Shown here: positions 8,539-59,695 of the stretch, piece after piece | Numbering within the stretch: position 1 is the stretch's first letter | How the letters are laid out: each line of letters starts with the position of its first letter | Origin: Eledone cirrhosa | Taxonomy: Eukaryota | Length of the DNA: 64,000 nucleotides | NCBI GenBank assembly: GCA_964016885.1 | Contig: OZ024763.1 | Location: 26,598,001-26,662,000 of the forward strand | Direction of reading: 5' to 3' | Position numbers and translations under genes: made by a program | The notes under the pieces: generated by a model | The model's input: only the letters and a program-made list of their open reading frames with translations | Told to the model about the DNA's origin: nothing | Databases searched by the model: none

Positions 8539-8668
8539 AACGAAGGAAATGTGGTAAGGAACCAGGTGGACCATAACGCACCAAAGTACTCAATACTTGA
8601 GGTAGTAGAGTCCAGAATTAGCCGTCGATACGGCTTGAGCTCAGCTGTCGGGGTCTTACTGGTTCCTA
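8539..8668. mobile_element. (TA)n-embedded PLE-like mini-element (family B)
   Basis: Flanked by (TA)n; carries the HHR 3' half GA(T)ACGGC..GCTGTC-GGGG; homologous to 32652, 35893, 45851, 54423 and 56180. Confidence 0.7.
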
Positions 8669-8799
8669 TATATATATATATATATATATATATATATATA
8701 TATATATATATATATATATATATATATATATATATATATATATATATATATATATATAGAGAGAGAGAGAGAGAGAGAGAGAGAGAGAGAGAGAGAGAG

Positions 8800-9145
8800 A
8801 GCACATGGCTTAGTGGTTAGAGCATTGGCCTTGCAATCGAAAGGTTGTGAGTTCAATTCCCAGACCGGGTGATGTGTTGTTTCCTTGAGCAAGACACTTT
8901 ATTTCACATTGCTCCAGTTTACTCAGCTGTAGAAATGAGATGATAGGGACCGGGGTTCCTATCATTCCACTGCAAAGTGGTCGTGGAGGTGCCACGGCAA
9001 AAAAGCACCCAGCACTCACTGTAAATGAGGTTGGTGTTAGGAAGGGCATCCAGCTGTAGAAATCAAGCCAGAATCAGTTCCCGTCCCACCCTTGCAAGCA
9101 GGGAAAAGCGGACGTAAAATGAAATGATGAAATGGTGATGATGAT
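8800..9145 (+). mobile_element. tRNA-derived SINE (family S1)
   Basis: Near-identical to 978-1384. Confidence 0.85.
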
Positions 9146-9268
9146 ATCATCATCATCGTTTTTTCTTATTATTATTATTATATTATTATATTATATATAT
9201 ATATATATATATATATATATATATATATATATATATATACACACACACAAATATTATTAGAATATATA

Positions 9269-9368
9269 CTGCATGTCCTCCAAAAATGTGTACACACTTT
9301 CAGTACCTGTACAGTTTATTTATTAGAATGCTGTTGAAGTGTGTATACAGATTTTGGGACACCTTGTG
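9269..9368. mobile_element. Degenerate tiny Tc1/mariner-like MITE
   Basis: Imperfect inverted repeat CAAAAATGTGTACACACTT / AAGTGTGTATACAGATTTTGG; related copy at 28871-28951. Confidence 0.5.
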
Positions 9369-9409
9369 TGTGGATATATATATATATATATATATATATA
9401 TATATATAT

Positions 9410-9740
9410 CACAAAGTTTCGAAGCGCATCTAACAGGACCAAACTCAGCAGACACAAATGCCACAGTCCAACGAACCCGACTATAGAACAATACTGCAGT
9501 TGGCCCCTCTGGGAGGAGTGTCCTCTGGTCTTCAAATGCCTAAATACTAATATAGTATACAAATCCGAAGTCACCACCAACACAGAGACAAAAGCATACA
9601 TAAGTATGATGGCTAATACCTTCAAATCCAGATTTACACAGCACAAACATTCTTTCGACATCCAGAGCATAAGCACACAAGTCTCTCCAGCCACCTCTGG
9701 CGGCTACATGGAAAAGGAATACTCTACCAACCATGCTGGG
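9410..9740 (+). pseudogene. Penelope-like element GIY-YIG endonuclease fragment (second PLE lineage)
   Basis: CPLVFKCLNTNIVYKSEVTTNTETKAYISMMANTFKSRFTQHKHSF fits the PLE pattern CPLxxxC..IVY..YIG..FKxR..H; starts directly after a (TA)n run. Confidence 0.75.
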
Positions 9741-10639
9741 CTATTTGTCCCTATTCACTATTTTATTTAATCATCTGTTAATACACTTCTATATAACCCA
9801 CTTTTTACTGTTAATTCTTCATTTGAATATACTATTTCAGCTTATAAATAACCCTAACCCCTCCACCCTCCATTTCTAAGACCTTTATGCTGCTTATCCT
9901 ACTCCCACCAACACTACTTCGTTTTCCTGACCCCTTGCCCGTCTGGATAAAGTTACCACTGTCTGTCCCCCTACTTCATCCATTTGACCAGTTTACTACT
10001 ATGATAAAGTCAACCAAAGCACTACCAAGACGAGTGACCTATTTTTTCATATCCTACAAATATTACTACACTGTTGGAAAATACTTGCTGAACACAGTGA
10101 AACCGAAACCGTTTGGCGCCGCCGCCGTCAGGAATTTACATCTCTCTCTCTCTCTCTCTCTCTCTCTCTCTCTCTCTCTCTCTCTCTCTATATATATATA
10201 TATATATATATATATATATATATATATAGAGAGAGAGAGAGAGAGAGAGAGAGAGAGAGAGAGAGAAAGAAAGATACATACAAACAAAAACATTTATATA
10301 TATATATATATATATACATACACACATTTCCTACGGAAATACTTCATAAAATATATATACACACATACATAATATCAGAATATAAATATATATTCATTCT
10401 CATTTTCCTTATATATATATATACACACACACATATATGATTAGAATATATATGTATGTACACACATATTATTAGTATATATATATATATATATATACAC
10501 ATATTAGAGCTCATTTAACCTGTCCTGCCCCACCCTACCATCTTCCCCCATTCCTTTACACACATCCTATATTTTCTCATTACCCTTTACATTTAACACC
10601 ACTCCTCCCCTCCCCTTCACTTTTTCCCTATCTTCTCAT

Positions 10640-55470: not shown

Positions 55471-55526
55471 AATATATATATATATATATATATATATATA
55501 TATATATATATATATATATATATATA

Positions 55527-55745
55527 TTAAAATAACAGATTAAAGTTTAAGCAAAGAATCGCTGCTTTCACCCTTAACGGGATCTTCTGAAACTAAAGAG
55601 TCAAGGGTGAAAGCAGCGATTCTTTGCTTAAACTTTAATCTGTTATTTTAATAAATATTTGCTCTACGGTTCTTATATATCTGATATATATTTATCCTTA
55701 TCGAGCCCTCTTTGGATTTTAGTCTTCAAATATATTATTATTACT
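55527..55745 (+). mobile_element. Family C fold-back mini-element with HHR (55544-55594, -)
   Basis: Arms 55527-55575 and 55603-55651; reverse complement AGTTT-CAGAAGA-TCCC gttaa GGGT-GAAAGCAG..TTGCT-T-AAACT. Confidence 0.75.
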
Positions 55746-56179
55746 ATATATATATATATATATATATATATATATATATATATATATATATATATATATA
55801 TATATGTATATATAGGAAATAAGGAAATGTTGAAAGAATAAGGAAGAGAAAGGAAGGAGGGCAGGAAGGAAGGAAAGAAAGGAAATTCAATTAATACACC
55901 AAGTAATTAATATTTCCTTGTGTTTAATTAATAAATGAATGGCTAATGTGGTCGTTACTGATATCGTTTATAGTTTACCTCACCCCCTCCTCTACCCTCT
56001 TTCTTAATCTCCATCTCCTCCTTCCATCGTATATCCCCCTCACCTCTCTCTCTCTCTCCGCTCTCTACAAATACATTCTCCTGTACTTTAAGCATATCGA
56101 GGTTATATATGTATATCTATATACATATATATATATATATATATATATATATATATATATATATATATATATATATATA

Positions 56180-56264
56180 TAGGAACAAGTAAGACCCCGA
56201 CGGCTGAGCTCAAGCCGTTTCGACGGAAATATTAATTACCGTTTCGACGGCTATTTCTGGACTA
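56180..56264 (-). mobile_element. Family B fragment
   Basis: AGGAACAAGTAAGACCCCGACGGCTGAGCTCAAGCCGTTTCGACGG. Confidence 0.7.
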
Positions 56265-56269
56265 TATAC

Positions 56270-59190
56270 ATATATAGACATATACATATATATACACATA
56301 CATATATAGACACATACATATATAGACACATACGTATATAGACACATAGATATAAAGACACATACCTATATAGACACATACGTATATAGACACATATGTA
56401 TATAGACACATATATAGACACATAAATATATAGACAGATACATATATAGACACATACGTATATAGACACATACATATATAGACACATACGTATATAGACA
56501 CATATATAGACACATACGTATATAGACACATAGATATAAAGACACATACCTATATAGACACATATATAGACACATAGATATAAAGACACATACCTATATA
56601 GACACATACGTATATAGACACATACATATATAGACACATACGTATATATAAACACATATGTATATAGACACATACATATTTAGACACATACATATATAGA
56701 CACATAGATATATAGACACATACATATATAGACACATACGTATATAGACACATACATATATAGACACATACGTATATAGACACATACGTATATAGACACA
56801 TACATATATAGACACATATATAGACACATAAATATATAGACACATACATATATAGACACATACGTATATAGACACATACGTATATAGACACATATATAGA
56901 CACATAAATATATAGACACATACATATATAGACATATACATATATAGACACATACGTATATAGACACATAGATATATAGACACATACATATATAGACACA
57001 TACATATATAGACACATACGTATATAGACACATAGATATAAAGACACATAGATATAAAGACACATACATATATAGACACATACATATATAGACACATATA
57101 TAGACACATATATAGACACATAAATATATAGACACATAGATATATAGACACATACATATATAGACACATAGATATATATAGACACATACCTATATAGACA
57201 CATACATATATAGACACATACATATATAGACACATACATATATAGACACATACATATATAGACACATAGATATAAAGACACATACCTATATAGACACATA
57301 CGTATATAGACACATACATATATAGACACATAGATATATAGACACATACATATATAGACACATACGTATATAGACACATACATATATAGACACATATATA
57401 GACACAAATATATAGACACATACATATATAGACACATACGTATATAGACACATACATATATAGACACATATATAGACACATAAATATATAGACACATACG
57501 TATATAGACACATAAATATATAGACACATACATATATAGACACATACGTATATAGACACATACGTATATAGACACATACATATATAGACACATATATAGA
57601 CACATAAATATATAGACACATATGTATATAGACACATACGTATATAGACACATACGTATATAGACACATACATATATAGACACATATATAGACACATACG
57701 TATATAGACACATAGATATAAAGACACATACATATATAGACACATACGTATATAGACACATACATATATAGACACATACGTATATAGACACATACATATA
57801 TAGACACATACATATATAGACACATACGTATATAGACACATACATATATAGACACATACGTATATAGACACATAGATATAAAGACACATAGATATAAAGA
57901 CACATACCTATATAGACACATACGTATATAGACACATACATATATAGACACATATATAGACACATACATATATAGACACATACGTATATAGACACATACA
58001 TATATAGACACATACGTATATAGACACATACATATATAGACACATACGTATATAGACACATACGTATATAGACACATACGTATATAGACACATACATATA
58101 TAGACACATATATATATAGACACATACATATATAGACACATATATAGACACATACGTATATATAGACACATACATATATAGACACATACGTATATAGACA
58201 CATACGTATATAGACACATACATATATAGACACATACATATATAGACACATACATATATAGACATACATATATAGACACATATGTATATAGACACATATA
58301 TATATATAGACACATACGTATATAGACACATATGTATATAGACACATACATATATAGACACATACATATATAGACATACATATATAGACACATACATATA
58401 TAGACACATACGTATATAGACACATACGTATATAGACACATACATATATAGACACATACATATATAGACATACATATATAGACACATACGTATATAGACA
58501 CATACATATATAGACACATACATATATAGACATACCTATATAGACACATACGTATATAGACACATACATATATAGACACATACATATATAGACATACATA
58601 TATAGACACATATGTATATATAGACACATATGTATATAGACACATACATATATAGACACATACGTATATAGACACATAAATATATAGACACATACATATA
58701 TAGACACATACGTATATAGACACATACCTATATAGACACATACCTATATAGACACATACGTATATAGACACATACATATATATACACATACATATATAGA
58801 CACATACATATATAGACACATACATATATAGACACATACATATATAGACACATACATATATAGACACATACGTATATAGACACATATATAGACACATAAA
58901 TATATAGACACATACATATATAGACACATACGTATATAGACACATACGTATATAGACACATATATAGACACATACATATATAGACACATACGTATATAGA
59001 CACATAGATATAAAGACCTATATAGACACATACGTATATAGACACATACATATATAGACACATATATAGACACATAAATATATAGACACATACATATATA
59101 GACATACATATATAGACACATACGTATATATAGACACATACATATATAGACACATATGTATATAGACACATACATATATAGACACAAACA
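56270..59190. repeat. 16-bp minisatellite GACACATAC(A/G)TATATA, about 2.9 kb
   Basis: Direct inspection; 12-, 14- and 18-bp variants interspersed. Confidence 0.95.
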
Positions 59191-59498
59191 TACACACACA
59201 TATAGACACATACACACACACTCATAGACACATACATACATTCAACACACTCATACACACACACACATACTAACAGACTCACACATACATTCGTTCTTTC
59301 TCTCTTATAAACACACACATACGCACATTCTTTCTTTCACACATATACACATAAACACACTCATACACATACACATACCCTCTCTATCTCTTTTTTACTG
59401 ACACATACACACACACACACACACTTTCTCTCTCTCTCTCTCTCTCTCTTTCTCTCTCTCTCTCTCTCTCTCTCTCTCTCTATATATATATATATATA

Positions 59499-59695
59499 CG
59501 TTATTCCGGGTTGAATCGGAGGTAACCACAGTAAGTAAGGTACTCAATACATAGCAGAGTATAACAGTTTTAATATAGATGAGATTCTACAGGACTAGAA
59601 CTGTTTCATTCATTTGAAATCATCAGGAGATTCCTGATGATTTCAAATGAATGAAACAGTTCTAGTTCTGTAGAATCTCATCTATATTAAAACTA
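59499..59695 (-). mobile_element. Family A fold-back mini-element
   Basis: Arms about 59566-59628 and 59632-59694; tail 59499-59565; (TA)n on both sides. Confidence 0.8.
59627..59679 (+). ncRNA. Type I hammerhead ribozyme (family A)
   Basis: GAGATTC-CTGATGA-T TTC aaat GAA T-GAAACAG..CTGT-A-GAATCTC; 7-bp stem I. Confidence 0.75.

Follow-up and report, generated by a model that had tools for sequence, protein, structure and literature searches.

Penelope-like elements (PLEs) are the closest relatives of the telomerase reverse transcriptase (RT). In other retroelements, such as the long and short interspersed elements (LINEs and SINEs) with their shared 3′ stem-loops and R2 with its 3′ untranslated region, an RNA structure is read by the element's own RT and is borrowed by non-coding passengers; such structures lie 5′ of a start at the RNA's 3′ end and are themselves copied. 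Here, we analyze a short oriented motif that recurs in a stretch of 64,000 nucleotides from Eledone cirrhosa (assembly GCA_964016885.1, contig OZ024763.1, positions 26,598,001 to 26,662,000 of the forward strand; this whole stretch is called the window) and that belongs to a hairpin of PLEs related to the Hydra clade. Unlike the structures of LINEs and R2, this hairpin is present twice, each time on the 3′ side of what is probably an internal start, and copying from that start would leave it out. From the comparison of sequences we consider it likely that the bulged hairpin, which occurs twice in the Hydra-type leader, binds the element's protein and so places the RT 3–9 nt upstream, at either of two internal starts.

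The Hydra clade consists of PLEs with a C-terminal endonuclease, for which Craig et al. (2021, PMC8557442) give a tail of 30–40 bp and no tail structure. Our elements share with it the protein diagnostics, the insertion into (TA)n, the pseudo-long terminal repeats (pLTRs), the inverted heads and the one-sided tail; they differ by tails of ~70–100 nt and, in one family (A), by a length of 3,543 nt and the lack of a canonical hammerhead core. PAc, a Poseidon PLE of Anolis carolinensis, has a tail that spans the stretch from one internal RT start to another, and copying extends both strands of the target; it can do without the ribozyme but needs the RNA situated 3′ of the starts (Frangieh et al. 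2024, PMC11167929). The sections consulted of that paper, the only in vitro study of how PLEs select RNA and starts, place its binding motif only within 172 nt and name no conserved repeated element. On the reading proposed here, PAc would be comparable to our elements in its two internal starts bounding a tail, the extension of both strands, the dispensable ribozyme and the need for 3′ RNA; it differs in belonging to another clade and in having its starts inside the open reading frame (ORF), in an AC-rich stem loop. The non-LTR retrozymes are small non-coding tandem units derived from PLEs, each with a hammerhead (Li et al. 2026, bioRxiv 10.64898/2026.07.22.740005), and the text examined names no hairpin signal. 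Non-coding, PLE-derived tandem units are found among the carriers of our hairpin as well; an identity with the retrozymes was nonetheless rejected for the sites of the window, 11 of which are ends of coding elements, while a 659-nt unit lacks the core and only a 1,322-nt unit located outside the window has one.

Both the element clade and RT-binding RNA structures as a kind of signal are already known, and it is the paired signal 3′ of internal starts that appears to be undescribed. No description of the hairpin was found in the literature searched, which did not extend to subscription papers, Repbase notes, or the PAc and bioRxiv supplements. The word “hairpin” occurs 0 times in the consulted main text of PMC8557442, and a term search of the available part of PMC13282606 likewise gave no description.

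The motif and the elements that carry it

A first, sequence-only reading of the window had listed 17 sites of a linear 10-mer, each pointing toward a (TA)n run, and had attributed them to the tails of unrelated mini-element families. All 17 sites are present on the strands given (minus-strand sites being numbered by their low coordinates), and every one is followed by a (TA)n run at a measured distance of 32–85 nt. The strict pattern RYYGAGTRCY has 16 matches in the window, 15 of them with TA 25–90 nt downstream, against a background of 11.5% and 0/20 for six permuted control motifs; a looser pattern adds two matches, at 158 and 184, without nearby TA. The flanks do fail to align between families as had been claimed, the 35 nt 3′ of the motif falling into 11 mutually non-aligning groups. 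The lack of relationship, however, was mostly not borne out: 11 of the 17 sites are 5′-truncated stubs of five related autonomous Hydra-type families (A to E). Two further details of the list needed correction. The sites at 31144 and 32175 both exist, but their identical flanks indicate a local duplication and not two insertions; the segments 31057-31291 and 32080-32322 form a local duplication with a period of ~1 kb, in which a family C stub was copied together with its flank. The variant at 22409 is likewise present, but it is a point-mutated copy of a motif that reads GAGTGCT in the other copies of family D. A splice-donor reading of GAGT was rejected, there being no GT at the first two donor positions of the sites, and the best 150 of 464 matches in an Rfam scan were microsatellite-driven and below gathering scores, with no informative family among the matches listed.

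The orientation toward TA extends to the whole genome, where a comparison of strand and distance with controls had been proposed as a check and came out in favor of the bias. In 40 regularly spaced 10-kb samples (400 kb), TA lies downstream of 21 of the 37 strict hits and upstream of 5, whereas the TA background is 5% and permuted control motifs give 3/102. Across the 3.0 Gb scanned, the pattern ACTC-N8-26-YYGAGTRCY-N30-60-(TA)6 has 47,852 forward matches, and its backwards-read control has 538, a reverse count that is inflated by multiple starts within a TA run.

Family A is found in intact copies in tandem arrays, with a unit of 3,543 nt and a single ORF of 709 aa that contains an RT plus a GIY-YIG endonuclease at the C terminus. 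Its protein has the CxCX5C linker, DKT, and C-terminal CxxC and CxH, with no CCHH in the endonuclease; these four Hydra motifs are kept in 88–89 of 89 aligned homologues, and the N-terminal RWK motif, which is the majority form of the alignment, appears as RWR in families A and B. A predicted structure of this protein has telomerase RT as its best match, as expected for PLEs. In families B, C, D and E the sequence likewise passes into a Hydra-type ORF or emerges from one, and tblastn searches match them to Hydra-type proteins. The hairpin-bearing families show the (TA)n insertion that characterizes the Hydra clade; the usual length of the clade (generally <3 kb) is exceeded by family A, owing to its long 3′ region. 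Families B, C, D and E each possess a hammerhead core, and we call family A Hydra-type because the canonical core is missing in 60 of its 60 pLTRs. This abundant family (L285, G000:C1:91476000-91485999; L197-L226) keeps the three hammerhead stems and has lost the CUGANGA core, though this core has been reported as universal in the Hydra clade.

The cognate enzyme had been expected from a PLE clade other than that of the coding element in the window, and the Hydra clade fits this expectation. The coding element itself had been called Naiad-like and said to lack the motif; its ends are indeed without motif, but the label was wrong. A Naiad identity (N-terminal endonuclease, no hammerhead) was rejected for 59859-61628, where a frame of 1,281 residues ends in CX4CxxC and GIY-YIG and a hammerhead core is located at 61866; the element is Neptune-like, and its tail lies within its own ORF. 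Neither Naiad nor Neptune qualifies as partner clade of the hairpin, as the ends of both are without it. In the Neptune-like family (61950-62135; L396, L397) both ends fall inside the ORF at the same short sequence, A|ATATCG, with ~60 nt between them; this clade may have a paired start signal of its own there.

A covarying hairpin in several hosts

The signal is not a linear 10-mer: the motif makes up the 3′ arm of a hairpin that covaries, is ~25 nt long and has the form RCUC-stem-loop-stem-UY-GAGY-RCY, in which an upstream RCTC pairs with GAGY and encloses a second stem, usually with a two-base bulge between them. Among 79 non-redundant sites (26 from this genome and 53 from other hosts) the 5′ arm is present in 76. 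In these, the closing pair is G-C in 55, A-U in 12, G-U in 4 and mismatched in 5, most of the mismatches being cases where the script chose the wrong arm. When the nearest arm is taken blind and without optimising, the first upper pair is kept in 67/76 (shuffle mean 53) and the second in 58/76 (shuffle mean 34); 0 of 10,000 shuffles reach either count, and the second upper pair uses all four Watson-Crick types. The first base of the bulge is U in 75/76, and in 49 of the 50 sites where selection could not force a U. Minimum-energy folds of three 190-nt leaders contain the first hairpin fully formed in one and not at all in two, so that single-sequence folding by itself lends no support to the structure. 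Several hairpins (L235, L254, L276, L401, L352) have loop inserts of 20–85 nt and keep their base, and the length of the loop is thus free. A minisatellite (L228-L231; G000:C1, 14.24-14.25 Mb) has a ~57-nt unit that holds a family-A-like hairpin.

The bulge invites comparison with the arginine sandwich motif of TAR and 7SK RNA, where a G-C and an A-U pair come after a bulged U (Pham et al. 2018, PMC6189040). Most copies of our hairpin likewise have a bulged U before G-C and A-U pairs; the loop, however, closes the other stem, and some Hydra hairpins have no bulge or a flipped A-U pair. Together with the conserved basic patches of the family A protein (residues 34–39 and 486–488), this analogy offers a lead, though a rather doubtful one.

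Outside Eledone, a profile of 60 Hydra-type proteins gave 97 loci from marine metagenome and metagenome-assembled genome contigs. Both arms are present in 21 of the 32 anchored leaders; 6 others have one and 5 have none, these last comprising three false or truncated anchors and two that carry variants. The first hairpin occurs in 24 of 38 downstream segments and in only 1 of 967 ORF windows. Of the six new Hydra consensi of PMC8557442, three show the hairpin plainly and two in deviant form when read by eye: Hydra-2_Amil (coral) and Hydra-2_Ajap (sea cucumber) have the first hairpin, Hydra-1_Ajap begins with both hairpins, Hydra-1_Crog and Hydra-1_Obim have deviant ones, and Hydra-1_Amil stops short of it. 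Five diagnostic 9-mers have 4 hits in the small Hydra file and 3, none of them terminal, in the much larger Naiad and Chlamys files, in all of which line breaks may hide hits. The hairpin recurs in the Hydra elements of other hosts and is not found in Neptune-like, Naiad or Chlamys ends. No Hydra relative was found in viral contigs.

This distribution bears on one alternative, that the motif is functionless and merely inherited from a common ancestor, or else is part of the hammerhead fold. Most families of the window are related Hydra-type elements, as common inheritance would predict; but their tails do not align even within this genome, while the hairpin is kept twice, across several phyla and with compensatory stems, and it persists where the hammerhead core is lost. 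We regard this alternative as highly improbable. A role as helper of the ribozyme was rejected for the same persistence.

Geometry of the hairpins and of the element ends

In full-length units the order is: ribozyme region, end 1, first hairpin (HP1), tail, end 2, second hairpin (HP2), start codon. The earlier placement of the motif 3′ of the ribozyme was thus correct, both hairpins lying between the ribozyme region and the start codon. The motif visible in the window is HP1; HP2 follows the tail where the unit continues in tandem, ~20–70 nt before the start codon, and it is matched to the tail end without being copied into insertions. Copies stop 3–9 nt on the 5′ side of one or the other hairpin. 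For family A, 5–8 nt separate the tail-less end from HP1 and 3–6 nt the tail end from HP2, the spread being TA microhomology, and 62/66 and 76/81 clear ends of its two subfamilies fall at these two places; in family B, 19/24 ends are 5–9 nt before a hairpin. Unclear ends were set aside (16 in A, 4 in A2, 3 in B), and apparent ends 55–72 nt before HP1 in four small families, which are TA stretches inside the references, were not counted. Among other hosts 9 of 11 same-element ends lie 2–8 nt before a hairpin, 7 of 18 rows having been dropped because they mark where different families diverge. Public contigs aligned to the leader, which were not selected for a tail, come loose in TA at these two positions as well (326 and 61 contigs, one run), although the runs with loose ends may stem from the same animal as the assembly.

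Coding families differ in the distance between HP1 and HP2, which ranges over 71–99 nt, and the gap from end to hairpin stays fixed. Because the downstream end is matched to the uncopied HP2 and the spacing of the hairpins varies, the distance from the motif to (TA)n is variable. The sequence-only reading was accordingly right in tying a cis signal to element ends, but the visible HP1 stands at a fixed distance from the tail-less or inverted-head end and not from the (TA)n end, 32–85 nt downstream, which is matched to HP2. Of 50 fold-back insertions, 49 combine an HP1-linked with an HP2-linked end, as do 17 of 18 among unselected or incidental ones; none of the 50 is from family B, probably through a failure of the pattern. 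Three tail-less Hydra-type ends in the window are without the motif (family B, 18134-18188, minus strand; family A, 56179-56267, minus strand; family D, 31474-31629, plus strand), as expected, since such ends are made before HP1.

The ten bases before the hairpins contain TAT or ATA in 57/70 (shuffle mean 39), with TA peaks at −6 and −8, and the UA or UAU of the short linker before each hairpin is in register with the (TA)n target. Since the ends coincide with UA patches, the starts could be set by nothing more than UA-rich patches pairing with (TA)n, while the hairpins recruit or package the RNA or serve transcription or translational autoregulation; the position of HP2 shortly before the start codon and the internal promoter of Penelope in the same region (PMC8557442) would agree with this. 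We think it unlikely. Other UA-rich patches of the leader and the 3′ region rarely serve as ends (families A and B), and two separate docking sites are needed if the ends are to pair one of each kind. Moreover, in two units without an ORF both hairpins are kept, at an unchanged distance from the ends, which, together with their retention in the coreless family A, argues against a role in translation or in the ribozyme. One such unit is that of the 39729 site, a 659-nt tandem unit without a long ORF or hammerhead core; another ORF-less tandem unit, of 1,322 nt and outside the window (L274, G000:C1:130881000-130890999), has a hammerhead core and both hairpin arms and is a candidate non-autonomous Hydra passenger.

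The geometry suggests a mechanism in which one leader docks two RT molecules at hairpins 3′ of the internal starts, in a telomerase-like arrangement, and primes both strands of a cut (TA)n; we put it forward tentatively, as a possibility to be taken seriously. The endonuclease would cut both strands of (TA)n, and each target 3′-OH would pair by 2–6 bases with the linker before a bound hairpin. Copying would then proceed upstream, away from the hairpin, so that the strand primed at HP2 would copy HP1 and make the tail, and the strand primed at HP1 would make the tail-less end or the inverted head. Units without an ORF could be carried in trans through keeping both hairpins. The order of the unit and the pairing of its ends are observed directly; from them we infer that the signal is RNA, that it is bound by protein and that it directs priming.

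Several observations weigh against the proposed binding of the protein at the two hairpins. Four of the 24 family B ends are 12–17 nt before HP1, and many end-mapped loci were selected for having a tail. A standard HP2 was not found in family B by pattern search, and the reduced form located otherwise is a bare four-pair stem with a flipped middle pair and with no bulge, upper stem or RCY; HP2 of families C, E and I deviates by long loops or other bulges. Among other hosts, 2 of 11 ends do not fit and 14 of 38 downstream segments have no strict HP1, several visibly stopping earlier in a TA/AT run and others carrying variants. Five window sites (14540, 15982, 28637, 40567, 46153) are without a traced parent. 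The shuffles used for covariation ignore kinship among the sites, and the change between A-U and G-C at the closing pair is restricted to HP1 of this genome and may have happened only once; for this reason better evidence comes from the upper stem, where switches are seen in both groups of hosts. The evidence on strand is also weak, internal G-U pairs outnumbering A-C by only 5 to 2 (an earlier count, 12 to 10, was uninformative as it included loop-closing mismatches).

Covariation cannot separate RNA from single-stranded DNA, and with so small a difference between G-U and A-C, the GIY-YIG endonuclease might read the hairpin as DNA, in an intermediate that is single-stranded or cruciform, and trim the ends by a cut at fixed distance. 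Craig et al. attribute the tail to endonuclease resolution (PMC8557442), and according to PMC11167929 the endonuclease of D. virilis did not cleave unless the tail was there. But HP2 is missing from the inserted DNA whose end it predicts, the UA register of the linker fits the pairing of a primer, and the tail ends of the Poseidon PLE coincide with RT starts mapped on RNA (PMC11167929). A DNA signal seems to us quite improbable, and binding to the RNA hairpin remains the reading that we prefer.

Sites of the window and meaning of the hairpin

The individual sites are collected in the table. Two related segments with a hammerhead core near TA-rich ends, at 7650 and 49000 (plus strand), are without the motif and belong to another PLE family. 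On the minus strand, 38417-38899 encodes the C-terminal piece of an ORF2 from a LINE, including a zf-RVT domain.

Table. Hairpin sites of the window, with one decayed stub and the Neptune-like coding element
Feature	Position	Strand	Context
HP1, family A (Hydra-type)	8585..8611	-	fold-back stub 8534-8669
HP1-like hairpin, 5′ arm mutated	14510..14549	+	downstream of hammerhead core at 14397
HP1-like hairpin, 3′ RCG variant	15982..16018	-	
HP1, family D, 3′ arm point-mutated	22409..22431	-	fold-back 22343-23022, hammerhead core at 22536(-)
HP1, family E, 1-nt bulge	24929..24951	+	hammerhead core from 24857; stub 24847-24994
HP1, family B, with a mutation in the 5′ arm of this copy	25378..25399	-	stub 25333-25460
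3′ arm, poor upper stem	28637..28658	-	follows a family-A-like ribozyme stem III; probably a stub with an internal deletion
HP1, family C	31144..31171	-	stub 31086-31291, hammerhead core at 31274(-)
HP1, family C	32175..32202	-	fold-back 32117-32472; same tail and flank as in the 31144 copy
Family A stub, decayed hairpin arm	32647..32784	-	absent from the sequence-only list
HP1, family B	32958..32979	+	fold-back 32829-33012
HP1, family A	36026..36052	+	fold-back 35907-36103
HP1, family I (ORF-less 659-nt tandem unit, no hammerhead core)	39709..39738	+	stub from 39550 to tail end 39813
HP1-like hairpin	40567..40589	-	
HP1, family A	45897..45923	-	stub 45846-45946
HP1-like hairpin	46153..46180	-	its family has a weak relationship to family I (72% across 109 nt, farther upstream)
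HP1, family A	54542..54568	+	fold-back 54422-54619: head from HP1-linked end, tail to HP2-linked end
HP1, family B	59539..59560	-	fold-back 59494-59694, hammerhead core at 59626(-)
Neptune-like PLE, 5′-truncated ORF (RT, CX4CxxC, C-terminal GIY-YIG)	59859..61628	+	negative control; ends without hairpin

The hairpin is a practical marker for ~95,000 such ends in the genome (the forward genome-wide count doubled, for spacings of 30–60 nt only), most of which are too short for a classification based on protein. A structure of ~25 nt that occurs across phyla, twice per leader and tied to both ends, makes the choice of RNA and of start sites by PLEs testable by point mutations and changes of spacing. 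The reading proposed here would account for the tail being one-sided, for the fold-back stubs and for the way non-coding passengers are carried. If it is true, it would be the first sequence-level explanation of the tail and the fold-back ends of PLEs, and the two hairpins would constitute a portable tag that lets non-coding RNAs, even those without a ribozyme, insert in trans.

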